32,000 bases of DNA from Candidatus Scalindua sp. (lineage in GTDB: Bacteria > Planctomycetota > Brocadiia > Brocadiales > Scalinduaceae): assembly GCA_031316235.1 (NCBI GenBank), contig JALDRA010000001.1, positions 3,810,001 to 3,842,000 of the forward strand, given 5' to 3'. Every line of letters begins with the position of its first letter. Position 1 is the first letter of the stretch. Position numbers and translations under genes: made by a program. The notes beneath the pieces were generated by a model, which saw only the letters and a list, made by a program, of their open reading frames with translations, searched no databases and was not told the DNA's origin. Shown here piece by piece: positions 6,722-32,000 of this stretch.

Positions 6722-6786
6722 TAATCACTCTCCTGCAAATTTTTTTTGATAAGACGCATAGCTTTTCTCGGCAGACTTCATAATGG

Positions 6787-10940: not shown

Positions 10941-11105
10941 TCTTATACTAAAACCGGTTTAGTTTTCTCTAAAAACCAGTTTCTGGTTAATGGTGTCCCC
11001 GGATAAAAGGCGTCGAGGACTTTCCCCGGACAAACGACGCCGAGGAAAGTCCTCGCTCCGTTTTTTCTCGGATTTTATCCGAAAACCAATATAAGATGAG
11101 TATAT
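10941..11105 (-). repeat. Copy B of the intergenic repeat family (inverted relative to copy A; carries an extra internal hairpin insert)
   Basis: The reverse complement starts ATATACTCATCTTATATTGGTTTTCGGATAAAATCCGAG and ends ...AAACCGGTTTTAGTATAAGA. An extra segment holds the stem CGAGGACTTTCC / GGAAAGTCCTCG. The terminus abuts the stop codon of the aminotransferase gene (11105-11107). Confidence 0.75.
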
Positions 11106-12277: not shown

Positions 12278-12360
12278 ATTTCTCTCCTAATTGGGATGCA
12301 GTTTGCCGATAATTTCCAGAACAACAAAAATCATCTTCGTACTAGGTTTATTTTCTTTTA

Positions 12361-12537
12361 TTATAAAGCGCCTTTCTTTTTACTTCCTGTTTTTGACAAA
12401 CGTTTAACAGTAAACTGTCTTCTGGATCTGCTGATTTCAGATAGTGTAGCAACCGGTCTTTTGTTCTTCAGAAGTATATTTTCAGCAAGCTCAGTGTATT
12501 TGTAAGTCTTAAAAACAGAGCCCATCTGCTTTCTCAT
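12361..12537 (-). CDS. Possible 58-aa basic small protein, translationally coupled (TAATG) to the upstream fusion gene
   Basis: Hand translation: MRKQMGSVFKTYKYTELAENILLKNKRPVATLSEISRSRRQFTVKRLSKTGSKKKGAL*. Its ATG shares one nt with the TAA of the 12537-14153 gene. No recognisable family and below the ORF-track length cutoff. Confidence 0.25.
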   Translation of the reverse strand: MRKQMGSVFKTYKYTELAENILLKNKRPVATLSEISRSRRQFTVKRLSKTGSKKKGAL

Positions 12538-14547: not shown

Positions 14548-15042
14548 CACTATCTAAGAGTGCTGTTAAAGGTTACAGGATATAATAAATCTGAAAAATA
14601 TAAGAATTATCAGTCACCCACAGGTTCAGCTGAGGGACTTGGAAGGAAAATTTCCAGTCTAAGCTGACCAATTTCCTCTCAAATTGTAATCTCCGTTTAT
14701 CATGTTTCTCCATTTCTTTTATCATTCTGAACTCATTTTTATTATTACAAGTGGTGAATACCTCCGCAATACAGCATGAGATCTCCGTTCTTCAAATAGT
14801 TACTCACTACTGGGGGGTAAGAATAGAGATTTTCAGGGAGAGGTTCGAATTTTATTGATCAAATCTGAGAAAGGTGTGTGAAACAACCTTCACTTGTAAC
14901 TTACGGTAATTTAGACATATAAGCTTGTGAAATTGTATTGTTCCTATTCGGTTGTATGATAATTACTACAGCAAGAAACGGTTTGATATTATTCAATATA
15001 TCGTAAGTCCTGTTAAATACTATAGATAGTTTTTATGTCTGA

Positions 15043-15216
15043 GTTTGGTATCATTCTTGCCTGTTTATTATAAAAATTTCTTATTTTACATTGAGTCCGG
15101 TCTGAACATAAGGTGTAATTTTAATAATTCTCATCTGGAACTCTTAATTTTCTGTTTGGTATCTGTGTATATCTGTGACCTGTTAATTTATTAGTTAAAG
15201 CTTAGGGAGGTAATGA
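15043..15216 (+). promoter_or_regulatory. Conserved ~174-nt leader/promoter region duplicated with the downstream gene (paralog of 18886-19058)
   Basis: Aligns with 18886-19058. Example: CTCTTAATTTTCTGTTTGGTATCTGTGTATATCTGTGACCTGTTAATTTATTAGTTAAAGCTTAGGGAGGTAATGAATG versus the near-identical string before 19059. GGGAGG RBS. Confidence 0.5.
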
Positions 15217-17630: not shown

Positions 17631-18620
17631 TTATTTTTCCATGGGGTAAGTCAAATTCCACTGTGCACGTATTGTATCCATTGTTTTCATAATTGACAAA
17701 GACTCATCCAATGACATAATAGTGCTTTCTTTTTTACCGGATCGGATGCAGTTCATCATGTGAAGAACTTCATGATGCAAGCCATTGTGTTTTTCATCAA
17801 ACTCGTAAATTATATCATTCTTATCTCTGATCATTACGGTAACTTTTAATGATCTATGCCAGGATGCATCTAATTTAATGCTGCCTTTTGTTCCAGCGAT
17901 ATGAGCTTCTCTGTCTGTATCAAGTATGATTGCTGAAGATAATTGAGCTATTTTATTTTTTTGGTATTCTAATAGTATTGAATTTTGTTCATCGACTCCT
18001 GTCTTCCCAAAGGCTGCAGCGCTTTTAATATTAATAGGGTTACCAAATATCATCGATGCAAGTGAAAGAGGATACACCCCGACATCAAGAAGAGCACCAC
18101 CACCTAAATACGGATTAAAAAGTCTATGTACTGGATTATATTTTGCGAAAAACCCAAAATCTGCTCTAAGGTGCAATACCTCTCCTATTAATCTTTTACC
18201 AAGTATTTGCTGCAACTTGACCAAGGCAGGATTAAACCTTGCCCACATGGCTTCCATAAGAAATAAATTCTTCTTTCTTGCTAATGTAACCATATCGAGC
18301 GCTTCCAGCGCGTTAATGGCAAAAGGTTTTTCACATAAAACAGATTTTCCGGCTTTCAATGCTGAAATCGTGTTATCTCTATGAAGATTGTGCGGTGTCG
18401 CGACATAAACAGCATCGATATCTATGTCATTGACCAATGATTGATATGATCCGTAATATTTTGGAATATTGTATTTTAAAGCAAAGGAACGAGCACGACT
18501 CAATTTTCGGGAACCAACTGCATAAAGTCTTGCATTTTTTACTGATGGAAACTCCCTTGCAAATCTAGATGCAATGTGTCCAGTAGCAATAATACCCCAA
18601 TTAATTATCTTCATAATCAA
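17631..18620 (-). CDS. Gfo/Idh/MocA family NAD(P)-dependent oxidoreductase
   Basis: 329 aa with N-terminal Rossmann INWGIIATGHIASRFA and the EKPFAINALEA motif. The start may be the third codon (MKIINWG). Confidence 0.85.
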   Translation of the reverse strand: MIMKIINWGIIATGHIASRFAREFPSVKNARLYAVGSRKLSRARSFALKYNIPKYYGSYQSLVNDIDIDAVYVATPHNLHRDNTISALKAGKSVLCEKPFAINALEALDMVTLARKKNLFLMEAMWARFNPALVKLQQILGKRLIGEVLHLRADFGFFAKYNPVHRLFNPYLGGGALLDVGVYPLSLASMIFGNPINIKSAAAFGKTGVDEQNSILLEYQKNKIAQLSSAIILDTDREAHIAGTKGSIKLDASWHRSLKVTVMIRDKNDIIYEFDEKHNGLHHEVLHMMNCIRSGKKESTIMSLDESLSIMKTMDTIRAQWNLTYPMEK

Positions 18621-19058: not shown

Positions 19059-21500
19059 ATGAAAACGTTTTGTGATTACTGGAAAAGTATACTGTTTTTT
19101 AACTTAATGTTTTGTATCTTCACTTTTTTTGTGGGAGCGGTTGATGCTAAAGCGGCCTGTACTCCGGTCATAACGGAACCGGCCTGTGGTGGAACGATAC
19201 AAAGCGGTTCAGATATCTCCTTCAACTGGAACACATGTGCGGAAGATTCAACGTACTGGTTGTCAGTTGCGACAGACCCTGTAAAATTCAAAAGCTCTCC
19301 CTTTGGAGATATTTTCAGCCAGGATTTGGGTTTTGTAAGTGGCCATACAGTATCTATTCCGGCATCGATACCCGATGGAAGCACTATATATGTGCGGTTA
19401 TGGTATGAAAGAGAAGTCTGGAAATACATCCAATGCAGCTACCAGATTGGTTCAGGGGGAGGTGGAGTAATACCCGGGATGATAAGCCCCGCTCCGGGTT
19501 CCACGCTGTCTGGTGCAACGGAGACCTTCAGCTGGTCGGCCAACGGTGCGAACGTGTCCAAGTGGTGGCTGTACATTGGCAGTTCTTCAGGGGGCAATGA
19601 CATTTACGACAGCGGTCTTTTAGGGAAGTCTACGAGTGATACGGTAAGCGGTCTGCCGACAGATGGTAGCATGGTGTATGTGAGACTTTTTTACAAAATT
19701 GGCACTGATAAGTATAGAGAAATTGACTACACGTATACTGCATGTACGGGAAATACCGGTGGTGGAGTAATACCCGGGATGACAAGCCCGGCTCCAGGTT
19801 CCACGCTGTCTGGTGCAACGGAGACCTTCAGCTGGTCGGCCAACGGTGCGAACGTGTCCAAGTGGTGGCTGTACATTGGCAGTTCTTCAGGGGGCAATGA
19901 TATTTACGACAGCGGTCTTTTAGGGAAGTCTACAAGTGATACGGTAAAAGGTCTGCCGACAGATGGTAGCATGGTGTATGTGAGACTTTTTTACAAAATT
20001 GGCACTGATAAGTATAGAGAAATTGACTACACGTATACTGCACATACGGGAAATACCGGTGGTGGAGTAATACCCGGGATGACAAGCCCGGCTCCGGGTT
20101 CAACGCTCTCTGGTGCAACAGAGACCTTCACGTGGTCGAGAAACGGTGCGGACGTTTCAGCCTGGTGGCTCCATATCGGCAGTTCTGCAGGGGGTAAGGA
20201 CATTTACGACAGCCGTGCATTGGGAACGTCTACGAGTGATACGGTAAGCGGTCTGCCGGCAGATGGAAGCACGGTATATGTGCGTCTTTTTTACCAGATT
20301 GGTACTGATGACTGGCGCGAAATTGACTATACCTATACGGCATATACAGATAACACCGATGGCGGTTGTGGAACTCTCCCTCCCAGCGGTATCATACAGG
20401 TCGGCACTATACAGGTAAGCAATGATGTTGCCTTTCAGGCGGTAGCAAGTAGTAATACACTTTATTTTGTCTATAATCAAGATGACAAACTCTATCTTTC
20501 CAAATCCGCCGACGGGGGAACGACATGGAGCAGCCCTCAGCTTGCCAGCCACCTGAATACAAACAAAAAGTTTTCCCTGGCTGTAGATAGTACAGGAAAA
20601 TTGCATCTTGTCTATTCGACCAGTAACGGTTCTGCAAGCTGGTATCGTTCAAACTCCAGTGGGAAATGGAATAGTCCCGTATTGATGAACGATACCCCGG
20701 ATTTCCAGGACACCGCTCCGGTTGTTGCCGTGGACGGCAATGATAACGTTCATGTTATTTTGTGGTCTTATCCTACCGATTGGCAAAATACAAACTGGAA
20801 AGCAGAGAGCCGTATTGTTTACCGGCTAAAGATCGCAGGTCAGGAAGATTTTGACGCACCCGAGTTCTGGAAAGCCGGGTTCGGCAGCCTGGGGGCCGGT
20901 AACGGAACGATAGAGATAAGTTCACAAGGGGATGTGCATTTCCTGTATGTAGGTTTGGCAAGTTCCAACAGTAATAATGCAGTCGAGCGGCGTATCCTGC
21001 ACAAAAACGGCACCTGGGATTCACGACATGACATTTTTCCCAAAATATATATTGGTGATTATGCCATATCAGGTGCGGTCGGCAGTGACGAGGTCCTTCA
21101 TATGGCCATCTTTGAAGCGGCGCCTACTCCCAAGGGGGTCGGGTACTTCAAGAGTACCCAGCCGAATGTACTTAAGAAAGTCTGGCAGAAGTACGAATAC
21201 TGGGAAGCGAATACCGATATATTGGTGGCACCCAATGGGGATGTCTGGATGACTTCAGCGAACCATCCCTTTGGAACCATGCATGACCCTGAAGAGTACC
21301 TCGCATCATACTGGCACTATGATAAATCATCCAGAACATGGTCCAGCAGGATGCACGTATCGGAGGCTGATTATACCAATGTGGACCACACTCATTTTGG
21401 TCAGCCGAAGCTCCTCCTCTATAACGGCAACGTACTGATGTTTTATGCGGAGAAGGCACCAGGATCAAACTTTAAATTCTATCAGCGGAACTTTAATTAG
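19059..21500 (+). CDS. Secreted multidomain protein, paralog of 15217-17403 with three tandem ~95-aa modules plus the BNR/Asp-box propeller-like domain
   Basis: 813 aa with the same architecture. Canonical Asp-box SKSADGGTTWSSP, then SNSSGKWNSP and DKSSRTWSS. The C-terminal ~370 aa are highly similar to the paralog at both protein and DNA level. Confidence 0.9.
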   Translation: MKTFCDYWKSILFFNLMFCIFTFFVGAVDAKAACTPVITEPACGGTIQSGSDISFNWNTCAEDSTYWLSVATDPVKFKSSPFGDIFSQDLGFVSGHTVSIPASIPDGSTIYVRLWYEREVWKYIQCSYQIGSGGGGVIPGMISPAPGSTLSGATETFSWSANGANVSKWWLYIGSSSGGNDIYDSGLLGKSTSDTVSGLPTDGSMVYVRLFYKIGTDKYREIDYTYTACTGNTGGGVIPGMTSPAPGSTLSGATETFSWSANGANVSKWWLYIGSSSGGNDIYDSGLLGKSTSDTVKGLPTDGSMVYVRLFYKIGTDKYREIDYTYTAHTGNTGGGVIPGMTSPAPGSTLSGATETFTWSRNGADVSAWWLHIGSSAGGKDIYDSRALGTSTSDTVSGLPADGSTVYVRLFYQIGTDDWREIDYTYTAYTDNTDGGCGTLPPSGIIQVGTIQVSNDVAFQAVASSNTLYFVYNQDDKLYLSKSADGGTTWSSPQLASHLNTNKKFSLAVDSTGKLHLVYSTSNGSASWYRSNSSGKWNSPVLMNDTPDFQDTAPVVAVDGNDNVHVILWSYPTDWQNTNWKAESRIVYRLKIAGQEDFDAPEFWKAGFGSLGAGNGTIEISSQGDVHFLYVGLASSNSNNAVERRILHKNGTWDSRHDIFPKIYIGDYAISGAVGSDEVLHMAIFEAAPTPKGVGYFKSTQPNVLKKVWQKYEYWEANTDILVAPNGDVWMTSANHPFGTMHDPEEYLASYWHYDKSSRTWSSRMHVSEADYTNVDHTHFGQPKLLLYNGNVLMFYAEKAPGSNFKFYQRNFN
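19461..20360 (+). repeat. In-frame 300-bp tandem repeat x3 (units 1 and 2 ~97% identical; unit 3 diverged)
   Basis: GGTGGAGTAATACCCGGGATGA recurs at 19461, 19761 and 20061. My hand alignment of units 1 and 2 finds 9 mismatches in 300 nt. Confidence 0.95.
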
Positions 21501-21502
21501 TT

Positions 21503-22060
21503 GTGACTTATATCGTAAGGAATATCAACCACGCATTGTACGAAAATTTTTTCTCTCCAACTAGTAATCGGTACGGGTATATCGATCTTGAAAATAATCA
21601 AGACCAGTCTGGAAAACTCGTCAAGGTAATCAAGAGCAGTATCTATGGGATTAACTTAAAGAAGATTTATCTTTTTGATATTGATGGCAGGATTTTTTTC
21701 AGTACTATTCGTGAGCAGATTGGATACGTTCTTGGGAGGGGTAAAAATGTACAGTTGGATTCGGCTATTAATTGAAGGCCGGTATCGGCTCTTCAGGAAC
21801 ACGGGATGAAGGATTCAAGAGGAGTAAAAGTAGAGGGATCTTTACTTGAGAGCTATTCCCTGAATATCTTAAGACGATCTGTGAGAAAACGTACCGGTGC
21901 ACATCGGAAACATCTAAATTACCGGATTTTCAAGGGTCATGAACCAGTCTTTAAAAAGTTTGAAATATACTTGCTTTTTGCCCCAAGACCTTTGATAATC
22001 TTTGGAGATCCAAATCAGCTCAATCAGCTACTCCTTAATTTAATTTTGAATGTTCTCTAG
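21503..22060 (+). pseudogene. Probable remnants of a sensor histidine kinase (sensor-domain-like fragment 21503-21775; N-box fragment 21806-22060)
   Basis: The second ORF ends ...PLIIFGDPNQLNQLLLNLILNVL*, resembling the HATPase_c N-box (gD...l.Q.l.NLi.NA) cut short. The first ORF has a Cache/PAS-like IYLFDIDGRIFFST. Both are far too short to be functional. Confidence 0.35.
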
Positions 22061-22107: not shown

Positions 22108-23355
22108 ATGGCAAAGGAACTGAAAAAAAAATTCCTGATTACGGGTGGGAAAGGTTTTCTCGGCAGTGCTGTTGTTAAAAGACTCCTGGCCCTGGGGTAT
22201 GAACTTCGGCTCTTAATAAGGCCTGGTAGTGAGAAAACTTCTTTTTATGACTATCTCCAGAAAAATTGTCATGGCAATTTTTTCAATGAGAGGGTTTTTT
22301 ATAATCTGGAAATATATGAGGGGGATATAACAGCTCCATTTTTAGGATTGGGGCAAGATGCGTATAACAGACTGGCTGATGAAACAGATGAGGTTCTTCA
22401 TTGTGCAGCAGCCACCCACTTTGAAAGTTCGAGGGCAGCGGAACTCAAGGCCGTAAATGTTCATGGTACAGAGAATATGCTGCGGTTTGCTGCCTCAGGC
22501 AGGACGAAGAGATTCCATTACATAAGTACTGCGTATGTAGCCGGGAGACAAAACGGTACTGTGTATGAAGAAGGTGATCTGGTTAATGTGCCAGTGTTTA
22601 ATAATGAGTATGAGAAGACCAAATTTTTTGCAGAAAAATGGGTCATTGAATATTCACGTAATAACGCAATCCCTTATACGATTTATCGACCAAGTATCAT
22701 CGTGGGAGACTCAAGAACCGGTTTCACGTGTAAATATGACAATATCTACACCTTTGCAAAGGCAATGTCAAACCTCCGGAATGGACATCTCACTGGAGAA
22801 ATGAGCAGGAGGTATCGTAGAGACGGAACTCTACCCGGTGAAGTTCTCGAAAGTGCTGCTCCTGTTCGTGTACCAGGTGATCCCGATGCCTTCGTAAACC
22901 TCGTTCCGGTAGACTATGTTGCAGACGCCATAATAGAAATTCTCAGTAAAAGAGAGACGATTGGAAAAATCTTTCATATTGTAAACCCTGATCCTCCAAC
23001 AATAAGTGAACTGAGAGATCTGCTCATCTCCATCCTCGAAATAAAGGGCATACGATTAATTATTGATGGAAAAATGGATGGAAAACGTTTGAGGTCGCAG
23101 GAGAGATTATTTCTGCGCCAGACTCGTACATACTATTCCTACTTATTTAATAAATTACGATTTGATTCCACAAACACCAGAGTGGCATTACAGGATACAA
23201 ACATTCAATGCCCGGCTATAAGCCATGATATAGTAAAAATATTAATGGAATACGCGCTTTTTCATGATTGGGGTGGAAGAAAAAATACTTCTGGTAAAGA
23301 GCCAGTACCATGTGAACGGCTGTTATCAGATTGTAAGGATTACGTATCCGGATGA
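22108..23355 (+). CDS. NAD(P)-binding thioester/acyl reductase-type SDR (male-sterility / NAD_binding_4-like)
   Basis: 415 aa. ITGGKGFLGSAVVKRLL Rossmann, GDITAPFLGL...VLHCAAATHF, YISTAYVAG, YEKTKFFAEKW (YxxxK) and RPSIIVGDSRTG. This pattern is that of terminal thioester reductase domains and fatty acyl reductases. Confidence 0.8.
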   Translation: MAKELKKKFLITGGKGFLGSAVVKRLLALGYELRLLIRPGSEKTSFYDYLQKNCHGNFFNERVFYNLEIYEGDITAPFLGLGQDAYNRLADETDEVLHCAAATHFESSRAAELKAVNVHGTENMLRFAASGRTKRFHYISTAYVAGRQNGTVYEEGDLVNVPVFNNEYEKTKFFAEKWVIEYSRNNAIPYTIYRPSIIVGDSRTGFTCKYDNIYTFAKAMSNLRNGHLTGEMSRRYRRDGTLPGEVLESAAPVRVPGDPDAFVNLVPVDYVADAIIEILSKRETIGKIFHIVNPDPPTISELRDLLISILEIKGIRLIIDGKMDGKRLRSQERLFLRQTRTYYSYLFNKLRFDSTNTRVALQDTNIQCPAISHDIVKILMEYALFHDWGGRKNTSGKEPVPCERLLSDCKDYVSG

Positions 23356-23834
23356 AGAGTAAAGCCTGTCAAGGGAAAGAGATTGAACAGAAAGATGCTG
23401 AAAAACAGCCTGAAATAACGGCACAGACTACCCACACGGAGTATTTCGAAAAAATGATGTACAACCGTGTAAACAATAGTCCAATACCAAAAATCAGGAG
23501 CCTCAACGCTATAATTCAGTTTGACATAGTTGGTGATAATCCGGGAAACTGGATTGTTATTATTGAAAAGGGGGTAGTGAAACGGATAGTGAGCGGCTTT
23601 GTTGAAAAAGGTTCTGCCGAGGGTGACTGCTTACAGGAAAACGTAAACAACGACACCGTATCATCAGGCACGATACGTAAGTCCAAATGCACTTTCCAGC
23701 TCGATGGGAATACGTTCATGTCTATTGTCCGACGGGAAATTACACCGCAACATGCCCTGTTTCAGAGAAAAGTACACATACGCGGTGATATGTTACTTGC
23801 TCTCAAGATGAATGTCCTGGTAAATTATTTATAA
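23352..23834 (+). CDS. SCP2 (sterol carrier protein 2-like) lipid-binding domain protein
   Basis: 160 aa. The C-terminal FQLDGNTFMSIVRREITPQHALFQRKVHIRGDMLLALKMNVL is the typical SCP2 ending. Its start overlaps the upstream stop (ATGA). Confidence 0.75.
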   Translation: MKSKACQGKEIEQKDAEKQPEITAQTTHTEYFEKMMYNRVNNSPIPKIRSLNAIIQFDIVGDNPGNWIVIIEKGVVKRIVSGFVEKGSAEGDCLQENVNNDTVSSGTIRKSKCTFQLDGNTFMSIVRREITPQHALFQRKVHIRGDMLLALKMNVLVNYL

Positions 23835-23845
23835 CGATACGAGCT

Positions 23846-26320
23846 ATGGAAATGATCATCAGATTAGTATTAAAATATCGAATACTTTTTGTGATACTGA
23901 TAGTTCTCGTTACAGGATTTTTTGGATACTACGCACGTAATTCAACCACTGACAATTCCATTGAAGTATGGTTAAGTAAAGAGGATGATGAACTTGATTA
24001 TTATTATCATTTTATCGATACATTTGGGGATGAAGAATTTCTCATTACTGTCATAGAAAATGAAGCGCACTTCAGCAGAAAAGGAATAAGACAGATTGAT
24101 AGTCTGACAAAAAAGTTTGAGAAACTTGAAGGTGTTAAAGAGGTAATCTCATTAGCGACTGTTTTTAAAGACAAATTATCGTCCTCTCACTTTAAAGAAG
24201 CAGTAAACAGAAGAGGCGGCAAAACGATCATTGAGGTCTTTAAAGAAGAAGTCGTATCAGATGTAATGTATGTGAATAACATTATATCTGCTGATGGGAA
24301 AATAACAGCAGTCATTGCTACCGTTGCCAAGGGGTCTCCTGAATCGAGAATGAAGCTGGTAAAAGAAACAAGAAACATAATAAATGAAACATATTCCAGA
24401 GGAGGTGCTATCGGAATGAGTGTGCCAGACAGTGAGCAGGGGGTAGATCTGGAAACTGAAAATGGAGTGCCTGGAATTAATTCATCGGATATCAGTGAAA
24501 TCCAGGCACGAGAGCTGTCACTATTCTCCAGGTCTGTTTCTATCGGTACACAGCTATTCAATAAATTTGCAATGAGATTGAATCTGGTTGAGCAGGAACC
24601 TCTCCCAGACACTGTATATTTAGCAGGCCCAACTATTGTCAATGCCGAACTTGATCGGATGTCACAGAGAGATATAAAAATTTTCATGCCTCTCATGTTT
24701 ACCATAGCCGTGGTTGTACTCATACTGCTGTTCAGGAATATTTCTGGTGTCCTGATTCCAATAGTAACGATCAGCATAAGTAGTGTGTGTATTGTCGGCC
24801 TGTTCACTTTCTTTGATAATAAGATGAATATGATCTCGGGAATGTTGACACCTCTCATTTTCATTATTTCTCTCGCGACTACGATACACATTCTCAACAG
24901 ATTTTATCTTGAATCGAAACTCTCGACAGATAGACAGAAGAACATTATTCAATCAATAAAAGAGATAGCTATACCCTGTTTCCTGACATCTGCAACAACC
25001 TCTATAGGTTTTCTCTCTTTTGTGGTGAGTGATGTTCAACCAGTCAAGACCATGGGAATATTTACTGCAGCAGGTGTCATGATGTCTTTTTTTATTTGCA
25101 TACTGTTGATTCCCATACTCGTCTCTCTGATTCCGGGAAAAGGGAGAGATATTCCTCCGCCTCTCTTGAAGAATGGGGTTACAGGTAATGAAAAATTCAA
25201 TGGTATTTTAGGTCATGTTGGAGCTTTTGTTCATACGCATAACCTGTTGATCATTATTATCAGCTTGATACTGATCTGTATTGCCGGGTATGGAGGAACA
25301 AGGATTAAGGTAGAATCTAACATTTTCGAATCTTTTCCCGGGGATAGTGAAATATCACGGTCTACTTCATTTATTGAAAGCAGTTTGATGGGACTCCTAC
25401 CCGTGGAGATCGTTTTAAGAGCTCCGGAAGCAGCGGGAATTTTTAGGCCGGAAGTATTGCATGAGATGGAGTCTCTGCAGAAGTATTTCCGTACGATTCC
25501 GGAAGTTACCGCCAGCATTTCTGTAGCAGATTATGTCAGGAGAATTCATACAGTGCTGGGTAATGATAAGGGAAACAGCGATGAGATACCTGAAGAGAAG
25601 GCACGTAATTATGCACAGCTTGCATCTCTCCGCGGAGATGCAATTGTAAAAACTCTTTATTCAAAGGATTGCGATGAGGGGCGGATTTCCGTCAGGATGA
25701 AAAATGTCAGTTCTTCCCGGTATCAGGAGATAATGAAGGACATTAAAGGGTATATCAATGGAAATGTCCCTGTGGGCATTGGTTGTACTATTACGGGCAT
25801 TGTTCCCCTCCTTATGGATATGCAGGGATATCTCGCCCTGAGTCAGATAAAGACTTTTCTGCTCGCGTTCATTTTTATTTTTATTTCGATTACGCTTTTA
25901 CTGAAATCCGTACGTTTCGGTATAATCAGCATGATTCCAAACCTGGTGCCAATTGTTATCACGCTGGGTGTAATGGGTTTTCTCAAAATCTCTCTGGATG
26001 TTGCAACTATCATGATTGCAAGTGTGGCAATAGGAATTTCCGTCGATGATACCATTCATTTTCTCTATCGCTTCAAAAGAGAGTTAGCAAAAGACAAACA
26101 CTACTATCAAGCAATACAGCGCACGCTGTCCGGCGTCGGTAAGGCAATACTCTTTACCACAATAATTGCAACATCAGGTTTCCTTATATTCTGCTTATCG
26201 AACTTCAAGCCTATTCAGTATTTCGGATTACTCACGGGCATCACTATGGTAACCGCATTAATTGCAGATATTTTCATTCTGCCTTCATGTATATTACTTT
26301 TTAAACCAAAATTTTTGTAA
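23846..26320 (+). CDS. MMPL/HpnN-like RND superfamily lipid transporter
   Basis: 824 aa with an N-terminal TM helix. Two large soluble loops are each followed by a block of ~5-6 hydrophobic helices (about aa 275-440 and 655-820). RND-type motif AIGISVDDTIHFLYRFKRE. Confidence 0.85.
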   Translation: MEMIIRLVLKYRILFVILIVLVTGFFGYYARNSTTDNSIEVWLSKEDDELDYYYHFIDTFGDEEFLITVIENEAHFSRKGIRQIDSLTKKFEKLEGVKEVISLATVFKDKLSSSHFKEAVNRRGGKTIIEVFKEEVVSDVMYVNNIISADGKITAVIATVAKGSPESRMKLVKETRNIINETYSRGGAIGMSVPDSEQGVDLETENGVPGINSSDISEIQARELSLFSRSVSIGTQLFNKFAMRLNLVEQEPLPDTVYLAGPTIVNAELDRMSQRDIKIFMPLMFTIAVVVLILLFRNISGVLIPIVTISISSVCIVGLFTFFDNKMNMISGMLTPLIFIISLATTIHILNRFYLESKLSTDRQKNIIQSIKEIAIPCFLTSATTSIGFLSFVVSDVQPVKTMGIFTAAGVMMSFFICILLIPILVSLIPGKGRDIPPPLLKNGVTGNEKFNGILGHVGAFVHTHNLLIIIISLILICIAGYGGTRIKVESNIFESFPGDSEISRSTSFIESSLMGLLPVEIVLRAPEAAGIFRPEVLHEMESLQKYFRTIPEVTASISVADYVRRIHTVLGNDKGNSDEIPEEKARNYAQLASLRGDAIVKTLYSKDCDEGRISVRMKNVSSSRYQEIMKDIKGYINGNVPVGIGCTITGIVPLLMDMQGYLALSQIKTFLLAFIFIFISITLLLKSVRFGIISMIPNLVPIVITLGVMGFLKISLDVATIMIASVAIGISVDDTIHFLYRFKRELAKDKHYYQAIQRTLSGVGKAILFTTIIATSGFLIFCLSNFKPIQYFGLLTGITMVTALIADIFILPSCILLFKPKFL

Positions 26321-27462
26321 TGCTCCCTATGTCAGAACAATCAGTCTTGCCGACCATTCAGGAATCCAGGTGGTTTGGCCTATCACCCAATGAATGGTTG
26401 CCTTCAATTATTGCCATACACTTTGATCCGGATCATGGTACTCGATACTGGCTTGATAAGGAAAAAGAGTTGGGAATCAAAGCTGCAGATGAGATAAAGA
26501 TGCTGGATGATTTAAAAGTACTTGGTCCTATGAATGAAGAAGATTTGAGGAGATATCCGATCGAATATTTTATCCCCAAGGCTTTTTTACATCAAAAAAA
26601 GGATTTTATTCTCGGAGAGACTGCAGGGACAACCGGTAGACCAAAGGTTACCGCATATCGGGAGGACGAATTCTACACGACATTTGTTGACTGGTTTGGT
26701 TATGTTGCTGAGAAAAGAAAGTTCCCCACCGGATGTAACTGGTTGTGGATAGGTCCGAGTGGTCCCCACATCATAGGCAAGGCGGTAAGGCCTGTAGCAC
26801 AGCGAATGGGAAGCATGGACCCTTTTTCTATAGACTTTGATCCCCGCTGGGCAAAAAAAATGAAACCCGGGACTTTTGGAAGCAGGCGATATCTGGATCA
26901 TATACTTGAACAGGCATTAGATATCCTGGAAACACAGGAAATTGGCGTATTATATACTACACCTCTTGTACTGGAGGCATTATCAGGAAGAATGACCGAC
27001 GACCAGAGAAGAGAAATTAAAGGTGTCCATTATGGTGGAGTAACAATAGGGAAAGATACTTACAGAAGATTCAAGGAAGAGTATTTTCCCGAATCAGTTC
27101 ATATATCCGGGTATGGAAATACACTTTTTGGTCTTTGCCTTGAAATAGTAGCGTCTTCAACCTATGACCTGGAGTACTTCCCCCCCGGGCCCAGAATGGT
27201 TGTTCAGGTCGTCTCGATGGAAACAGGGATCAGGCCTTCTCATAAACGCCTCTCCCAGATAGTTGATTATGGAGATTCCGGACAGGTAGTCTTTCATAGG
27301 CTTGATGAGTGTTTTTTTATACCCAATATGTTTGAACGCGACAAGGCTGTTCGGATTCATCCTGCACCATCAGTACGAGAGTTCGGTATCATGCTGGATG
27401 GAGTAAGAAACCCCACCCTGGTTGAGAGTAATGACGCTGGAGTAAAAACAGGATTGTATTAA
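26320..27462 (+). CDS. ANL-superfamily adenylate-forming enzyme (PaaK / coenzyme F390 synthetase / LuxE acyl-protein synthetase-like)
   Basis: 380 aa. The P-loop-like ILGETAGTTGRPKVTAYREDEF corresponds to SSGTTGKP of PaaK-type ligases. Short, single-lobe size similar to LuxE. The start overlaps the upstream stop (TAATG). Confidence 0.65.
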   Translation: MLPMSEQSVLPTIQESRWFGLSPNEWLPSIIAIHFDPDHGTRYWLDKEKELGIKAADEIKMLDDLKVLGPMNEEDLRRYPIEYFIPKAFLHQKKDFILGETAGTTGRPKVTAYREDEFYTTFVDWFGYVAEKRKFPTGCNWLWIGPSGPHIIGKAVRPVAQRMGSMDPFSIDFDPRWAKKMKPGTFGSRRYLDHILEQALDILETQEIGVLYTTPLVLEALSGRMTDDQRREIKGVHYGGVTIGKDTYRRFKEEYFPESVHISGYGNTLFGLCLEIVASSTYDLEYFPPGPRMVVQVVSMETGIRPSHKRLSQIVDYGDSGQVVFHRLDECFFIPNMFERDKAVRIHPAPSVREFGIMLDGVRNPTLVESNDAGVKTGLY

Positions 27463-27575
27463 GGAATTACAATTAAGCTGTTCCTTTTACACTATACTTA
27501 ATGTTTTAAAGAAAAGTTGAAAACCGCAGCTTTTCATTTGACAATACGTTCGAGCTAGATTGGAAAGGTAAATGA

Positions 27576-29576
27576 ATGAAACTATCAGAAACAAAAATTG
27601 AATTGCTGGCGCCTGCCGGCAAATGGGGTGTCCTGGAGGCCGTAATAGAGGCGGGTGCAGATGCCGTCTACCTTTCGGGGAAACAATTTAATATGCGGAT
27701 GCACCGGTCTGATTTTCACTTCTCTGATCAACAACTGGCATTAGCGGCAGAATTTGTTCACAAGCACAATGGAAAGATTTATATTACCGTAAACAACATC
27801 CTTGGTGATAGTGAATTAAAAAGACTGAACCACTACCTTGCATACCTGCAGGAGATTAACGTTGATGCAATAATAATTCAGGATTTGGCAGTTCTTTACC
27901 TCGCAAGGGAAGCGGGGATACATATACCCATTCATGCCAGTACCATGATGAACGTTCACAGTCCAGAGATGGCGATTGAGTTGAAAAAACTCGGAATCTC
28001 AAGGATAATTACGTCTCGCGACATTACGATTTCTCAGGTAAAAGAGATAGGGAGAAAGAGTGGATTGGAAATGGAGTATTTTATCCATGGTGATATGTGT
28101 GTTGCACAGAGTGGTCAGTGTTATTCAAGTGGAGTGATATTTGGTAAAAGTGCGAACCGTGGTGAATGCATGAAACCCTGCAGATGGAAATACGATATTG
28201 TGGAAACAACATCCGGTCAAACGATAGGAGACCTGCCAAAAGGATATCTCCTGGCCATAAAAGACATGTGCATGTTTCAGTTTATTCCCGAACTTATCCA
28301 GTCAGAGATCTGCTCCTTTAAAATAGAGGGGAGGATGAGGCATGAGAGTTTTCTCAAGCCTCTGGTAAGCCTTTACCGCAGAGCCATCAATGAGTATCTT
28401 GATTCTCCTTTTACGTTTTCGTCTAAGATTGAAGAATTCGAAAGTCTTTATACCAGCAGGGTCAGAGACTTTACGACATCAATGGCTTTTTCTCATACAA
28501 CACCATCTTCATTTGATTATACGGGAGAAAGAGAACCGCTGTTTTTAAGCCGTGGCGCTGTGGAAAAGAGTCTGACGTCTGCAGACTTACCCCACAATCC
28601 TTTTGAAATACCTTTTGGAAACCGGAATCGAGAAAAGTACCTTGCCGTTAAGGTTTCAACCTTTGATGCAGTTAAAAAATCACTTGCTGCAGGCGCAGAT
28701 TATGTGTATGTAAGCGGTGAAATTTCACCTGCCCGGGGAGAGATATGGACGAAAAGGACATTGGAAGAGGCAACCAGGATTGTGCATGACGCCGGTAAAA
28801 AGATTGCATGGGGAACACCGCGAATCTGTATGTCACGAGAATTGTCAGAGGTTGAATGGCTTTGTGAATTAGCCTCGAATATCGGTGTGGATGGAATTCT
28901 TGTCCAGAATCTGGGTGCCTTATCGTATGCCAGAGATTTCGGGCTCAATATAATTTCTGATTTTTCATTCAATATCTTAAACACCTGCGCTATAAAGATA
29001 TTGGAACAATCAGGCGTAAGCAGAGTTACCGCATCCATGGAATCGTCATTCAATGACATTTTCTCGCTTGCAAGAGACTCTACACTTCCTATAGAATGTA
29101 TTGTCCATGGTTCCTTGCCAAGCATGTTGCTGGAACATTGTCTGCCGGCAATGGTGGTTACCAAATCTAATTCGAAAGGAATCTGCCGGTTGCCGTGTAG
29201 ATATATGGGGTATGCACTTAAAGATGAAAAGGGAGAGATCAGGCCGATAGAAGTGGATCAGTACTGCAGAAATCATATCATGTTTTCAACAGACCTCTGC
29301 GTACTTCCGTATCTTAATTCATTTGTAAAAACTGAGGTTGAGGTGTTCCGCATTGAAGCGCAATATTACAATGAAGTCTTTGTTGAAACAGTGGTGAGGC
29401 TTTACCGGAACCGCCTGGATCAATGTATGGATAATCCAGACATTTTTTATCCGATTCCCGAGTCAGAGTGGGAGGGATTTATGGAAAAGAGTCCCAGGGG
29501 TCTCAGCTTGTGCGCCTATGCCCAGGATGTGACAAAGTCAAGGAGTACCCTGGAAGTTATGAAAACGTCAATATAA
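27576..29576 (+). CDS. Fused double peptidase-U32-family protein (two U32 domains in tandem; UbiU/UbiV, RlhA, TrhP family)
   Basis: 666 aa. First half: ELLAPAGKWGVLEAVIEAGADAVYLSG and the U32 signature EYFIHGDMCVAQSGQCYSS...NRGECMKPCRWKY. The second half repeats the pattern: AAGADYVYVSG ... ECIVHGSLPSMLLEHCLPA...KGICRLPCRYMGY. Confidence 0.85.
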   Translation: MKLSETKIELLAPAGKWGVLEAVIEAGADAVYLSGKQFNMRMHRSDFHFSDQQLALAAEFVHKHNGKIYITVNNILGDSELKRLNHYLAYLQEINVDAIIIQDLAVLYLAREAGIHIPIHASTMMNVHSPEMAIELKKLGISRIITSRDITISQVKEIGRKSGLEMEYFIHGDMCVAQSGQCYSSGVIFGKSANRGECMKPCRWKYDIVETTSGQTIGDLPKGYLLAIKDMCMFQFIPELIQSEICSFKIEGRMRHESFLKPLVSLYRRAINEYLDSPFTFSSKIEEFESLYTSRVRDFTTSMAFSHTTPSSFDYTGEREPLFLSRGAVEKSLTSADLPHNPFEIPFGNRNREKYLAVKVSTFDAVKKSLAAGADYVYVSGEISPARGEIWTKRTLEEATRIVHDAGKKIAWGTPRICMSRELSEVEWLCELASNIGVDGILVQNLGALSYARDFGLNIISDFSFNILNTCAIKILEQSGVSRVTASMESSFNDIFSLARDSTLPIECIVHGSLPSMLLEHCLPAMVVTKSNSKGICRLPCRYMGYALKDEKGEIRPIEVDQYCRNHIMFSTDLCVLPYLNSFVKTEVEVFRIEAQYYNEVFVETVVRLYRNRLDQCMDNPDIFYPIPESEWEGFMEKSPRGLSLCAYAQDVTKSRSTLEVMKTSI

Positions 29577-29677
29577 ATTAACAACTGTTCGAATTAACAC
29601 TCATTATTTTGGTGGAAGTGATTACTCATTTATTCATGAAATCATAAAACAGCACACCTTGGAAGAAGAATACCATT

Positions 29678-30454
29678 ATGCAGAATTCAAGTATTAAAAA
29701 AGTTTTATCGTCATTCTTGTTTTTTTCACTCTACACGGTTTTATCCATTCACGCTGCGACAGCGGAAACTGACAGCTTTGAATCAGCAGAACAGCTTCTT
29801 CGTGAAGGAATGCGAATGTACGATACGAAGCAGATACAAAAAGCAAAAGAGATCTTTGTCGAGCAGGCTGACAGGAAACCTGCTGATCATGTATCTGCCT
29901 ATTATGCTGCTCTCTCATATCTCGCTCTTTGTGATGTAAAAAACTTTGAAATGAGAAAGAGTCCGAACAAGGCGGAAATGAAAGCCAGAAAGGAAGAACG
30001 GGTAATACTGGCAGAGGAAGGGTTGACATACGCAGACAGATCAATTGAATTGAAGAAGGATTTTTCTGAATCACATCGGGTGAAGGGGGCCCTTTTGTCG
30101 AACAAGATCTCCGGTATGGTTTCAGGGATGAGAAACGGGAAACTGGCTGAGGAGGAGATAACACATGCGCTCAAGATTGACAATAAGAATATCATGGCTC
30201 AGATTGAGAATGCAAGAATGTTTATCAATAAGCCCAGGATTCTCGGAGGGAATACTCAGAAGGGAATCGAGATCCTTACTACTGTCATAAAGGATTTTCC
30301 CGGATTGGAAAAAGGATACCTCAATCTGGGTATTGTCTATTATGAAAATGGTAAAGAGGAATTGGCAGTGGACACATTTAAAAAGCTGCTGGAAATTAAT
30401 CCTGACAATCCGGAAGCCAGATATTTCGTTAACCATCTTACCATATTGAAATAA
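29678..30454 (+). CDS. Secreted tetratricopeptide (TPR) repeat protein
   Basis: 258 aa with signal-like LFFSLYTVLSIHAATA and TPR-like helices. Example: GYLNLGIVYYENGKEELAVDTFKKLLEINPDNPEARYF. Confidence 0.7.
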   Translation: MQNSSIKKVLSSFLFFSLYTVLSIHAATAETDSFESAEQLLREGMRMYDTKQIQKAKEIFVEQADRKPADHVSAYYAALSYLALCDVKNFEMRKSPNKAEMKARKEERVILAEEGLTYADRSIELKKDFSESHRVKGALLSNKISGMVSGMRNGKLAEEEITHALKIDNKNIMAQIENARMFINKPRILGGNTQKGIEILTTVIKDFPGLEKGYLNLGIVYYENGKEELAVDTFKKLLEINPDNPEARYFVNHLTILK

Positions 30455-30468
30455 GGGATAATCCTGAC

Positions 30469-31779
30469 ATGCAAAAAAAACAACCGTATATCGGGCCGGA
30501 AGAGATCATACGCAAGAAGAGGGAATTTCTGATTCCCTGTGTTTACCATTTTTATCAGAAACCCATGCAGATTGTCCGGGGAGAGGGGCAGTATCTGTTT
30601 GACCATCAGGGAAAACGCTATCTCGATTTCTATGGTGGTGTCTCTGTCCTCAATGCAGGCCATTGCCATCCAGAAATTACCGCTAAAATCTGCCAGCAGG
30701 TAAATACACTGCAGCATACGACCACTATCTATTTAACACAACCGATTGTTGATCTTGCTGAAAAAGTAGCACAGATTACTCCAGGAAATTTAAAGAAAAG
30801 TTTCTTCTGCGCCAGTGGGTCTGAGGCTAATGAGGGGGCACTTTTGATCTCCCAGCTCTATACGGGAAAACATGAGTTCCTGGCGCTCTCACACGGTCTC
30901 CATGGAAGAACGAAGCTGTCTATGAGTGTTACGGGGTTAAAATTCTGGCGTACCGATTCTCATCCGGTTGGAGGAATCAGTTTCGTACCCAACGCATATT
31001 GCTATCGTTGTGTTTTCAATCGTATGTATCCTGATTGTGACATCGAATGTGCGAAACAGATTAAAAATGTTATTGAAACATCTACTTCAGGAGAGGTTGC
31101 CGCACTTATTGTTGAACCGATTCAGGGCAATGGGGGTATCATCACACCGCCTCAAGAATACTTCACCGTTATGAAGGAAATTCTGGATACATATGGAATA
31201 TTACTTATCGTGGACGAGATACAGACAGGGTTTGGTCGAACGGGAAAGATGTTTGCCATTGAGCATACGGGGGTAGAACCGGATATTTTGACATTTGCCA
31301 AGTCTATTGCAAATGGAACCCCTGCAGGGGGATTTATCACGAATGATGATATTTCCTCATCCTACAAGAGACCCGGTGCTTCAACATTTGGTGGAAATCC
31401 CGTTACCTCTGTTGCAGCCCTTGCTACTCTGGAAGTAATCGAAAAATATGGATTGATCCAAAATGCCGAAATAATGGGGGCATATCTTACCGATTCATTG
31501 AAAGGGCTTCAGGAGAGACATCCAATAATTGGTGATGTTCGCGGAAAAGGACTGATGGTAGGAGCGGAATTGATTGGAAATGCGAAAGAGCCTGCAGCAA
31601 TGGAGACCGACGTAATCCTTGAATACATGAAAGACAGGGGGGCACTTATAGGAAAGACAGGGGCAGGACGAAATGTCCTGACATTTCAACCCTCATTGAT
31701 AATTTCGAAGGAGAACATAGACGAGATAATTGAAATTCTTGATGACGCGCTGGCCTGTGTCACAACGAAAAGAGGATAA
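30469..31779 (+). CDS. Class III PLP-dependent (omega-type) aminotransferase
   Basis: 436 aa. GGVSVLNAGHCHPEI, SGSEANEGAL, DEIQTGFGRTGKMFA and the Schiff-base Lys context TFAKSIANG. Confidence 0.9.
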   Translation: MQKKQPYIGPEEIIRKKREFLIPCVYHFYQKPMQIVRGEGQYLFDHQGKRYLDFYGGVSVLNAGHCHPEITAKICQQVNTLQHTTTIYLTQPIVDLAEKVAQITPGNLKKSFFCASGSEANEGALLISQLYTGKHEFLALSHGLHGRTKLSMSVTGLKFWRTDSHPVGGISFVPNAYCYRCVFNRMYPDCDIECAKQIKNVIETSTSGEVAALIVEPIQGNGGIITPPQEYFTVMKEILDTYGILLIVDEIQTGFGRTGKMFAIEHTGVEPDILTFAKSIANGTPAGGFITNDDISSSYKRPGASTFGGNPVTSVAALATLEVIEKYGLIQNAEIMGAYLTDSLKGLQERHPIIGDVRGKGLMVGAELIGNAKEPAAMETDVILEYMKDRGALIGKTGAGRNVLTFQPSLIISKENIDEIIEILDDALACVTTKRG

Positions 31780-31830: not shown

Positions 31831-32000
31831 ATGAAAGACTGGTTTGAAGAACGATACCAGCTTAGAGAAATCATAGAGATAAATGTAACGAAGAAACTGA
31901 TACCAAAGGGTCTTAGTTGGTTTGGCTGTATGGGTGGATTGGCATTCGTAGCATTTCTGCTCCAGGTTGGAACTGGCGTTTTCCTCGTATTTCATTACGT
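31831..32000 (+). CDS. Cytochrome b (b6/bc1-type) N-terminus; 3' part lies outside the window
   Basis: Hand translation MKDWFEERYQLREIIEINVTKKLIPKGLSWFGCMGGLAFVAFLLQVGTGVFLVFHY. It matches the DWF-ER...K-P...F-C-GG...Q-TG...Y pattern of PetB/QcrB N-termini. Not in the ORF track because it has no stop in the window. Confidence 0.8.
   Translation, partial: MKDWFEERYQLREIIEINVTKKLIPKGLSWFGCMGGLAFVAFLLQVGTGVFLVFHY

Follow-up and report, generated by a model that had tools for sequence, protein, structure and literature searches.

What is made by an operon that unites an SCP2 lipid-binding protein and a double U32 protein with an adenylating enzyme, a reductase, an aminotransferase and an MMPL transporter? 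Such an operon lies at positions 22108-31779 of a 32,000-nt stretch of DNA from Candidatus Scalindua sp., an anaerobic ammonium-oxidizing (anammox) bacterium (GCA_031316235.1, JALDRA010000001.1:3,810,001-3,842,000, forward strand; hereafter the window). The original prediction read it as an O2-independent lipid modification and export system that follows the logic of Escherichia coli UbiT/UbiU/UbiV. Because the modules of its relatives adjoin menaquinone genes and respiratory cytochromes, the system probably makes and exports a modified quinone-type lipid without oxygen. Our more specific reading, which is tentative and falls somewhat short of probable, is that the module tailors a lipid-bound naphthoate derived from the futalosine pathway: the carboxylate would be reduced, an amino group introduced and, in anaerobes, the molecule hydroxylated without O2, before the product is exported. 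The genes of the operon are as follows.

22108..23355, + strand: thioester-reductase-type short-chain dehydrogenase/reductase (SDR), 415 aa; PF07993 NAD_binding_4
23352..23834, + strand: SCP2 lipid-binding protein, 160 aa; PF02036
23846..26320, + strand: MMPL/HAE3-type RND transporter, 824 aa; PF03176
26320..27462, + strand: EhpF-like adenylating enzyme, 380 aa; match to EhpF in PDB
27576..29576, + strand: double U32 protein, 666 aa; PF01136 in two stretches
29678..30454, + strand: secreted tetratricopeptide-repeat (TPR) protein, 258 aa; TPR Pfam matches
30469..31779, + strand: class III (fold type I) aminotransferase, 436 aa; PF00202 Aminotran_3

All seven open reading frames (ORFs) were co-directional in the ORF listing of the window. 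The reductase and SCP2 genes share a 4-nt stop/start overlap (ATGA, 23352-23355) and the MMPL and EhpF-like genes a 1-nt overlap (TAATG, 26318-26322), both seen in the sequence; the other intergenic gaps of the run are 11, 113, 101 and 14 nt. The gene positions, overlaps and gaps given by the original prediction were all as read. When the operon was scanned for consensus intrinsic terminators, none of its intergenic gaps gave a match. The two terminator-like matches on the + strand were both within ORFs, and the total was below shuffle expectation. The seven genes are one operon, which is part of a larger conserved system and extends past position 31779 into cytochrome genes. The view of a self-contained seven-gene operon therefore needs amendment: the genes are packed as claimed, but the TPR gene is lineage-specific, and cytochrome b and multihaem genes and a serine hydrolase also belong.

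Conservation was studied by scanning one genome per species with an eight-sequence alignment as query. EhpF-like relatives were encoded at 248 loci, of which 80 were retrieved and analysed; neighbours were counted by tblastn with the window proteins and by unbiased clustering of all ORFs in the 80 loci. Twenty-five anammox loci were well flanked (at least 6 kb on both sides), and 33 loci were from non-anammox organisms. The gene order reductase-SCP2-MMPL-EhpF-like-U32-aminotransferase-cytochrome b was found in all anammox genera examined, including Brocadia and Kuenenia. The U32 and aminotransferase genes were each present in 25/25 of the well-flanked anammox loci, reductase and SCP2 each in 24/25, MMPL and a downstream cytochrome b gene each in 23/25, and multihaem cytochromes in 22/25. 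This arrangement is far beyond chance. The grouping made in the original prediction is thus borne out by strong co-occurrence, in 23-25 of the 25 loci and in other phyla.

The full enzyme set was found also in Thermodesulfobacteriota, Desulfobacterales, Sedimentisphaerales, Pirellulales and Omnitrophota. Genomes of Gemmataceae, Planctomycetaceae, Isosphaera type and Tepidisphaerales have a smaller set that lacks U32 and MMPL, and the U32-less version is carried by the cultured and fully sequenced Frigoriglobus tundricola (CP053452.2, about 9,758,600-9,769,500). Among the loci analysed, U32 occurred in Brocadiales, Desulfobacterota, Sedimentisphaerales, Omnitrophota, Syntrophales and some metagenome-assembled genomes (MAGs) of Pirellulales and Phycisphaerae, and was not found in Gemmataceae-type clusters. 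The lineages that carry U32 are mostly anaerobic and the Gemmataceae-type lineages mostly aerobic. No O2-dependent hydroxylase recurred in place of U32 in the U32-less clusters; the one candidate gene family there, UNK22, encodes a lipoprotein and occurs in U32-bearing clusters as well. We rejected anammox-specific ladderane biosynthesis and ether-lipid alcohol formation as roles of the module, which is present in at least six non-anammox lineages. Since it is widespread outside anammox bacteria, the module is not specific to ladderane lipids, and published papers on candidate ladderane clusters do not mention it.

The connection with menaquinone was found in the non-anammox loci. In 18 of these 33, a futalosine gene (MqnD, or MqnA together with an MqnE::MqnC fusion) lay within 10 kb on the same strand, in several arrangements. 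This link was missed by the original prediction, in which the substrate was an ordinary lipid, a reading that we weigh below as a rival. An MqnD-like gene (PF02621) stood between the EhpF-like and aminotransferase genes in about 14 Planctomycetota loci, including that of F. tundricola; these are U32-less clusters. Its product matched TTHA1568 (3a3u; E = 9e-34) and AF1704 (E = 6e-47) in PDB, and the gene is annotated by JGI as 1,4-dihydroxy-6-naphthoate synthase. In Pirellulales and Sedimentisphaerales the operon starts with an MqnA-like gene, closest to the chorismate dehydratase SCO4506, and a gene for an MqnE::MqnC fusion that scored over both equivalog cut-offs (TIGR03700, 709 bits; TIGR03699, 777 bits). 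For the double radical-SAM protein of locus L081, identity as FbiC (F0 synthase) was considered and rejected: CofGH gave 563 bits against a cut-off of 1018, and the MqnE and MqnC cut-offs were exceeded.

The clusters resemble the futalosine pathway in two respects: orthologous clusters share an operon with MqnA, MqnE::MqnC or MqnD, and the product of MqnD, 1,4-dihydroxy-6-naphthoate, is an aromatic carboxylate, the substrate class of EhpF-type enzymes. Unlike that pathway, however, none of the seven window genes encodes a known Mqn enzyme, and the predicted MqnP, MqnL and MqnM are not adjacent. All five Planctomycetes proteomes surveyed contain MqnA, MqnC and MqnD, and the classical pathway is incomplete (PMC3914697, as read from its flattened Table 1). 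No ubi genes recurred in the 80 loci, which together with the use of the futalosine pathway by Planctomycetes agrees with the original view that the substrate is probably not ubiquinone. YceI-family genes were present in several loci. At L060:11090-12562, in a long-read Gemmataceae MAG, an MqnD-like domain and the start of the aminotransferase fall in one 490-aa ORF, and the rest of the aminotransferase is in another frame. Frigoriglobus and the other loci have two separate genes, so that a frameshift in the assembly is more probable here than a true fusion.

None of the curated NCBIfam equivalog cut-offs for UbiT, UbiU, UbiV, TrhP, HpnN, HpnA, PaaK or named aminotransferases was reached by the window proteins. 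The seven proteins are thus members of broad families and not orthologues of characterised proteins. A profile-HMM check by Pfam agreed with the earlier domain calls for NAD_binding_4, SCP2, MMPL, U32 (twice), TPR and Aminotran_3. The adenylating enzyme is a different case. It had been described as PaaK/LuxE-like, and it is an adenylating enzyme, but one of the EhpF type. The 380-aa protein matched EhpF in PDB (3l2k/3hgu) with E = 2.5e-32, query residues 24-347 aligning with residues 21-337 of 366, whereas the PaaK model gave 17 bits against a cut-off of 700 and no LuxE Pfam match appeared at E <= 0.01. No Pfam match was significant; a sub-threshold match to the AMP-binding N-domain ended at profile position 322 of 384. 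The protein has no ANL C-terminal domain and has the features of EhpF-type atypical ANL enzymes, and it contains a P-loop-like motif, GETAGTTGRPK. It corresponds to MRK01_16070 (377 aa in the record; 100% identity over 99% of the length). The family is small: a set of 1.84 billion proteins contained 539 of its representative clusters (50% identity). Elsewhere its domains are fused to a hydrolase, an aminotransferase (P0175), SCP2 or a zinc alcohol dehydrogenase.

Among relatives of the 380-aa enzyme, EhpF is the only one that has been characterised. It is an ANL adenylating enzyme of atypical form, without a C-terminal domain, that activates phenazine-1,6-dicarboxylate, and EhpF and EhpG together convert this compound to its 6-formyl derivative. 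The window operon is like the EhpF/EhpG pair of D-alanylgriseoluteic acid biosynthesis in that it encodes a clear EhpF homologue, near full length and without the ANL C-terminal domain, and an adenylating enzyme beside a reductase fits the conversion of a carboxylate to an aldehyde. It is unlike the pair in its low identity to EhpF and in that the operon system adds SCP2, a serine hydrolase and an aminotransferase. No phenazine (phz) genes were present in the window or among the recurrent neighbours, and the locus does not qualify as an EhpF/EhpG pair. EhpG in annotated phenazine clusters is an aldehyde-dehydrogenase-family protein (PMC11278526, table). Since the partner here is a NAD_binding_4 SDR, it is a reductase of another type than EhpG.

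The reductase gave 167 bits with PF07993, well over the Pfam cut-off, and 156.8 bits with the thioester reductase model TIGR01746 (cut-off 213.35). Its nearest solved relatives in PDB were the MxaA terminal reductase (E = 1e-30), reductase domains of polyketide synthases and nonribosomal peptide synthetases (PKS/NRPS), carboxylic acid reductase (CAR) and fatty acyl reductase (FAR); the MxcG model gave 93.5 bits. In myxochelin B biosynthesis the terminal reductase of MxcG yields an aldehyde that the class III aminotransferase MxcL converts to a primary amine. Like such pairs, the operon combines a thioester-reductase-type domain with a class III aminotransferase, and both the MxcG model and the MxaA structure were matched. 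The reductase here, in contrast, is free-standing or fused to SCP2, and there is no NRPS/PKS and no carrier protein.

The SCP2 protein gave 45 bits with PF02036. Its score with the UbiT equivalog model (NF047962) was 18.9 bits against a cut-off of 46.9, and BLASTP aligned only 49 residues with E. coli UbiT, at 29% identity. SCP2 was fused to the reductase orthologue in L060, L067, L081 and L090, to the hydrolase in L089 and to the EhpF-like domain in P0162, P0173, P0174 and P0177, and it was retained in clusters without U32. Unbiased clustering revealed a serine alpha/beta-hydrolase as a near-universal extra member (30 of the 33 non-anammox loci), in which the GYSFG nucleophile elbow and the Asp and His motifs are invariant. 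It sits after the cytochrome genes in anammox genomes and was not found in the Scalindua sequence examined. The hydrolase, the EhpF-type adenylating enzyme and the SDR, paired or fused with SCP2, are the first sub-module of the system. The fusions indicate that SCP2, hydrolase, adenylating enzyme, reductase and aminotransferase act on one hydrophobic substrate or on consecutive intermediates.

The U32 protein showed two PF01136 domains (348 bits) and is of the Fe-S type with a four-cysteine motif, as expected of the family. Its N-terminal half is UbiU/TrhP-like and its C-terminal half UbiV-like. Scores were 182.7 bits with UbiU (NF047963; N-terminal half only; cut-off 440), 73.6 bits with UbiV (NF047965; cut-off 275) and 195.7 bits with TrhP (cut-off 534), and a sequence search of PDB gave no match at E <= 0.001. 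In contrast to TrhP and RlhA, the gene stands among lipid and aminotransferase genes, not RNA-modification genes. The N-terminal motif CX6CX15CX3C (C175, C182, C198, C202) includes the equivalents of UbiU C169 and C176 and is invariant in anammox bacteria, Pirellulales, Desulfobacterales and Firmicutes. Alignment with E. coli UbiV showed C522, C537 and C541 of the C-terminal half to be the equivalents of UbiV C180, C193 and C197. The fourth UbiV ligand, C39, is not kept and aligns to Ser or Pro; C564 and C575, which are invariant, could stand in for it. The cysteines of both halves are conserved into Firmicutes, and the gene is split into two ORFs in the deltaproteobacterial locus L052. Because the cysteines are kept in both halves and the gene can be split, the protein is plausibly a fused, heterodimer-like Fe-S U32 enzyme of its own subfamily. 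Most of the twelve U32 subfamilies are uncharacterised, and hydroxylation by UbiU/UbiV depends on prephenate as oxygen donor and needs an electron acceptor that is not yet identified, as for U32 hydroxylases in general (PMC10990095).

The likeness to E. coli UbiT/UbiU/UbiV (yhbT/U/V) consists of the UbiU-like and UbiV-like U32 domains, each with potential [4Fe-4S] cysteines, an SCP2 gene in the same operon, an anaerobic setting and a likely substrate that is a lipid-bound aromatic quinone precursor. In other respects the systems differ. The U32 domains here are fused in a 666-aa protein that scores below the equivalog cut-offs and lacks C39 of UbiV; SCP2 goes with the reductase, adenylating enzyme and hydrolase, and the partner of U32 is a class III aminotransferase. 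No ubi genes are nearby, and the hosts are menaquinone organisms. True UbiTUV orthology was accordingly rejected on the equivalog cut-offs, the context and the pattern of SCP2 fusions. The UbiT/UbiU/UbiV logic of the original prediction is also weakened by the separate fates of its parts, SCP2 being fused to the reductase, hydrolase or EhpF-like enzyme and kept without U32, and the double U32 occurring without SCP2 in Firmicutes.

The aminotransferase gave 359 bits with PF00202 and reached no equivalog cut-off. Its orthologues are closely similar, with 65% identity for the copy in Sporomusa and 47-64% for the others, and the gene adjoins U32 in Firmicutes and MqnD in Gemmataceae. The Firmicutes genes form a minimal trio, in which a full-length relative of the double U32 protein is encoded together with a class III aminotransferase and a periplasmic-binding-protein-fold (PBP-fold) protein (PF04392) that has no signal peptide (L087:9089-13286, Sporomusa carbonis; L088:9095-13324, a Bacillota MAG). 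No reductase, adenylating enzyme, SCP2 or MMPL gene lay beside the trio at either locus. Because the trio occurs without the other genes, U32 and aminotransferase are a second sub-module that stands alone in Firmicutes. The PDB entries closest to the PBP-fold protein, 3lft and 6hni, represent solute-binding proteins or proteins not yet characterised; the PBP-fold protein could serve either in substrate delivery or as an enzyme.

The MMPL protein gave 127 bits with PF03176 in two stretches and has about 12-13 hydrophobic segments in two transmembrane bundles. Scores were 204 bits with HAE3 (TIGR00921), below the cut-off, and 106.2 bits with HpnN (cut-off 751.85); the MmpL3 cut-off was likewise not reached. 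The protein is like RND lipid exporters of the MmpL/HpnN type in its MMPL fold and its place inside a lipid-handling operon, and unlike them in these scores and in its replacement by a MacB-type ATP-binding cassette (ABC) exporter, which takes the MMPL position in Gemmataceae. The TPR protein has one hydrophobic segment (residues 9-27) at its N-terminus. Its gene was found in 11/80 loci, all of Scalindua type except one Omnitrophota locus with a TPR-family ORF, and is essentially a Scalindua-specific accessory. UNK22 is a predicted lipoprotein of 370-555 aa encoded in 12/33 non-anammox loci, with and without U32 (L064:15376-17043, L075:4062-5174, L076:6798-8345, L090:13038-14144). It contains the motifs 'CGCYYK(V/I)FP' and 'MIYFDQ', has no Pfam or NCBIfam match, and may be a periplasmic partner of the exporter. 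The predicted export part of the system is thus an MMPL or MacB-type ABC exporter with a periplasmic lipoprotein (UNK22) or TPR protein.

Downstream of the aminotransferase gene, the window ends within a cytochrome gene:

31831..32000, + strand: cytochrome b6-like gene, first 56 codons, running past the window; identical to L003:1722-1889

The full gene matches PF00033, and its NCBIfam scores (ExtP, 171 bits; cytochrome b6, 166 bits) are below cut-off. Next, beyond the window, come a subunit-IV-like gene and three genes for multihaem cytochromes c, of which the first encodes a protein resembling ExtKL. Taken together, these genes look like a quinol:cytochrome c oxidoreductase module. Multihaem genes are also present 3' of the aminotransferase gene in Pirellulales and Sedimentisphaerales.

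Taken with the family assignments, this distribution lends support to a succession of putative adenylation, reduction and transamination steps, to a U32 pair of the O2-independent hydroxylase type and to an RND/MMPL exporter, all of which the original prediction had named. We propose that the EhpF-like enzyme activates the ring carboxylate of the futalosine naphthoate, 1,4-dihydroxy-6-naphthoate, which probably bears a prenyl or other lipid tail and would be held by SCP2. Reduction of the activated carboxylate to an aldehyde would fall to the SDR, assisted by SCP2 and perhaps by the serine hydrolase as an acyl relay, and the aminotransferase would convert the aldehyde to an amine. In anaerobes, the double U32 protein would hydroxylate the aromatic ring without O2, with prephenate as oxygen donor as for UbiU/UbiV. 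Export by the MMPL protein would then place the product on the periplasmic side, for possible use by the adjacent quinol-oxidase-like cytochrome complex. The sequence of steps, the exact substrate and the product remain proposals.

Several points weigh against this proposal. A thioester-type reductase normally needs a thioester; there is no carrier protein, and the EhpF-type enzyme is without a thioester-forming domain. EhpF's own partner is annotated as belonging to the aldehyde dehydrogenase family, not the SDR family. No Mqn gene lay within 10 kb in any of the 25 well-flanked anammox loci or in the window, and the menaquinone link for this genome therefore rests on orthology with other clusters. 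Prenyltransferase, UbiD/UbiX decarboxylase and methyltransferase genes did not recur beside the module in the 80 loci. The Firmicutes trio includes a 65% identical aminotransferase and no reductase, so that the carbonyl substrate of the aminotransferase need not come from the reductase. To our knowledge, ordinary menaquinone is the only quinone reported from Planctomycetes, and we know of no amino- or extra-hydroxy-naphthoquinone described from any of the carrier organisms. Finally, SCP2, MMPL and a FAR-like reductase fit a plain fatty-acyl substrate equally well. On such a substrate, a fatty acid released or transferred by the hydrolase would be activated, reduced to a fatty aldehyde and then aminated; U32 would hydroxylate the resulting fatty amine before its export by MMPL, and the neighbouring menaquinone genes would reflect only a shared regulation of membrane and respiratory functions. 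We consider this account unlikely. The reductase belongs to the 'male sterility'/FAR family and has FAR and CAR among its solved relatives, SCP2 and MMPL proteins are generic lipid handlers, and Mqn genes are absent near the anammox clusters. Moreover, a serine hydrolase that appears catalytically intact from its motifs (GYSFG, Asp and His) accompanies the adenylating enzyme and reductase as LuxD accompanies LuxE and LuxC. The likeness to LuxC/LuxD/LuxE extends to the three-part logic of a serine acyl-transferase of the alpha/beta-hydrolase fold, a short adenylating enzyme and an aldehyde-yielding reductase. LuxC, however, is a reductase of the aldehyde dehydrogenase type and the reductase here is an SDR; there is no LuxE Pfam match and no bioluminescence context. 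The adenylating enzyme matches neither LuxE nor the fatty-acyl ligase families, and its sole characterised relative acts on an aromatic dicarboxylate. The position of MqnD between the adenylase and aminotransferase genes, or of MqnA-MqnE::MqnC in the operon, in several arrangements across Planctomycetota lineages, is hard to explain by chance or regulation alone. All characterised U32 hydroxylases known to us have aromatic or heteroaromatic carbons as their targets rather than alkyl chains.

The missing thioester would cease to be a problem if the route were convergent, the reductase::SCP2 and aminotransferase making a long-chain amine from an acyl thioester and the EhpF-like enzyme acting as an amide ligase that joins it to the futalosine-derived naphthoate, so that the quinone headgroup exported has an amide-linked alkyl tail as its anchor and no prenyl chain. 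The reductase would then take acyl-ACP (acyl carrier protein) or acyl-CoA, as FAR does, and the aminotransferase::EhpF and SCP2::EhpF fusions would represent consecutive steps; both the lack of a recurrent prenyltransferase and the adjacency of MqnD would be accounted for. This route is entirely inferential, though, and does not account for the Firmicutes trio, in which U32, aminotransferase and PBP-fold protein occur with no reductase. Nor are we aware of any EhpF-type enzyme that forms an amide. We regard the route as improbable. There is an equally slim chance that the module supplies alternative late futalosine steps to ordinary menaquinone, the C6 carboxyl being handled in place of the predicted UbiD/UbiX-like MqnL/MqnM decarboxylase. 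The module is found in operons with early Mqn genes, the futalosine pathway appears to be the one on which Planctomycetes depend (PMC3914697), and MqnP, MqnL and MqnM are themselves only genomic predictions for which, according to their authors, experimental verification is still needed (PMC4746308). With the enzymes of the module, nevertheless, there is no chemically plausible way to turn a ring carbon that bears an aldehyde or aminomethyl group into an unsubstituted one. Housekeeping menaquinone needs neither an MMPL/MacB exporter nor a periplasmic lipoprotein, and U32 and MMPL are variable parts of the system. Tailoring of a hopanoid (bacteriohopanepolyol) side chain, with the aminotransferase acting as HpnO on a terminal aldehyde, the transporter as HpnN and the SDR as HpnA, is very improbable. 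Anammox bacteria do make bacteriohopanetetrols, and there were weak NCBIfam matches to HpnA (76.2 bits, cut-off 367.65) and HpnN (106.2 bits). A hopanoid would also suit the GT2, YdjC, LPG_synthase_TM and PMT genes beside the cluster (L089 and some anammox loci), as well as the B12-radical-SAM genes of deltaproteobacterial loci, which are weakly similar to HpnJ/HpnR. Yet every Hpn model scored far under its cut-off, squalene-hopene cyclase, HpnH and HpnG were absent among the recurrent neighbours, and the EhpF-like enzyme and Mqn genes would be left unexplained.

B12-binding radical-SAM genes flank the module in deltaproteobacterial loci (L052:4039-5427 and 14630-16081; a 466-aa ORF upstream of the reductase gene in L054), with best sub-threshold matches to BchE, HpnR, HpnJ and a 'lipid biosynthesis B12/radical SAM' model. 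These matches suggest an additional C-methylation or related tailoring in these lineages. GT2, LAB_N and PMT_2 (ArnT-like) genes lie beside the cluster in Brocadia/Kuenenia (L004:2310-4991; L005:3391-4926 and 14607-16280), and L089:13353-17978 adds LPG_synthase_TM and YdjC genes. These genes are a hint of glycosylation on the periplasmic side, either of the exported product or of a neighbouring component of the envelope.

Upstream of the operon, the window contains the remains of a regulatory gene:

21509..22012, + strand: decayed sensor histidine kinase remnant; tblastn with the L018 kinase

In other anammox genomes (e.g., L007 and L018), an intact histidine kinase, a sigma54-dependent response regulator and a single-domain receiver are encoded upstream. 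In the remnant, only residues 63-178 (72% identity), 333-359 and 384-409 of the 526-aa kinase of L018, the closest relative, were matched by tblastn, and the sigma54 response regulator and receiver genes of L007/L018 were absent from the window. With its kinase decayed and no regulator genes present, this strain may have lost the regulation dedicated to the operon. Inspection by eye only showed no sigma54-type promoter upstream of the reductase gene.

The rest of the window encodes mostly secreted and surface-glycan proteins. Three paralogous secreted proteins (340-1830, 4162-5667 and 8599-10464) have nearly identical N-terminal regions and weak right-handed beta-helix/chondroitinase B-like matches, and the one at 8599-10464 has a Thr/Pro/Gly-rich linker and an additional C-terminal domain. 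Two large secreted paralogues with near-identical signal peptides (15217-17403 and 19059-21500) each contain 2-3 copies of a repeat of about 100 aa (e.g., 'GMTSPAPGSTLSGATETFSWSANGANVSKWWLYIGSS...') and a BNR/sialidase-like C-terminal region; the local GC peak (0.51, 16001-17000) is due to these repeats. Three overlapping or adjacent ORFs on the minus strand at 2105-3768 (170, 157 and 256 aa) are flanked by two of the beta-helix paralogues and resemble a single gene broken by frameshifts, possibly that of a degraded transposase; the 170-aa and 256-aa ORFs, the two scanned, gave no Pfam match. Surface-glycan genes unrelated to the operon are present at 5882-7605, 11105-14153 (minus strand) and 17631-18620 (minus strand). 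They encode a sulfotransferase, a GT2 glycosyltransferase, a DegT-family sugar aminotransferase, a GFO/IDH/MocA oxidoreductase fused to a hexapeptide-repeat transferase domain, taken as an acyltransferase, and a second GFO/IDH/MocA oxidoreductase.

No characterised orthologous cluster was found, and full-text searches of the literature yielded no published description of the gene set or of a link between U32 and futalosine, in keeping with the earlier claim that no characterised system has these genes. Each component is from a known family; the system as a whole is well delimited, spans several phyla and is uncharacterised. A broader generalization is doubtful. Anaerobes, including anammox bacteria, Desulfobacterota, Sedimentisphaerales, some Pirellulales and Omnitrophota, would make an undescribed quinone-type redox lipid, a futalosine-derived naphthoquinone whose ring carboxylate is reduced and aminated, whose ring is hydroxylated without O2 by the new subfamily of fused U32 Fe-S enzymes, and which is exported by MMPL to work with Cbc-type cytochrome b/multihaem complexes at the periplasmic face. 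The U32-aminotransferase pair would be a general O2-independent means of placing nitrogen on an aromatic or quinone scaffold, and the aerobic Gemmataceae would make a related compound without U32. The fused UbiU/UbiV-like subfamily with its fixed class III aminotransferase partner provides candidates for U32 chemistry, and its recurring cytochrome b/multihaem neighbour is a candidate electron acceptor for U32 hydroxylases. The sharing of operons with futalosine genes points either to an unrecognised naphthoquinone branch or to a new exported quinone derivative. With F. tundricola as a carrier in culture with a complete genome, the question is open to experiment. All anammox genera examined have the module, beside a quinol-oxidase-like complex, and it thus bears on the poorly known quinone and membrane biology of anammox bacteria.

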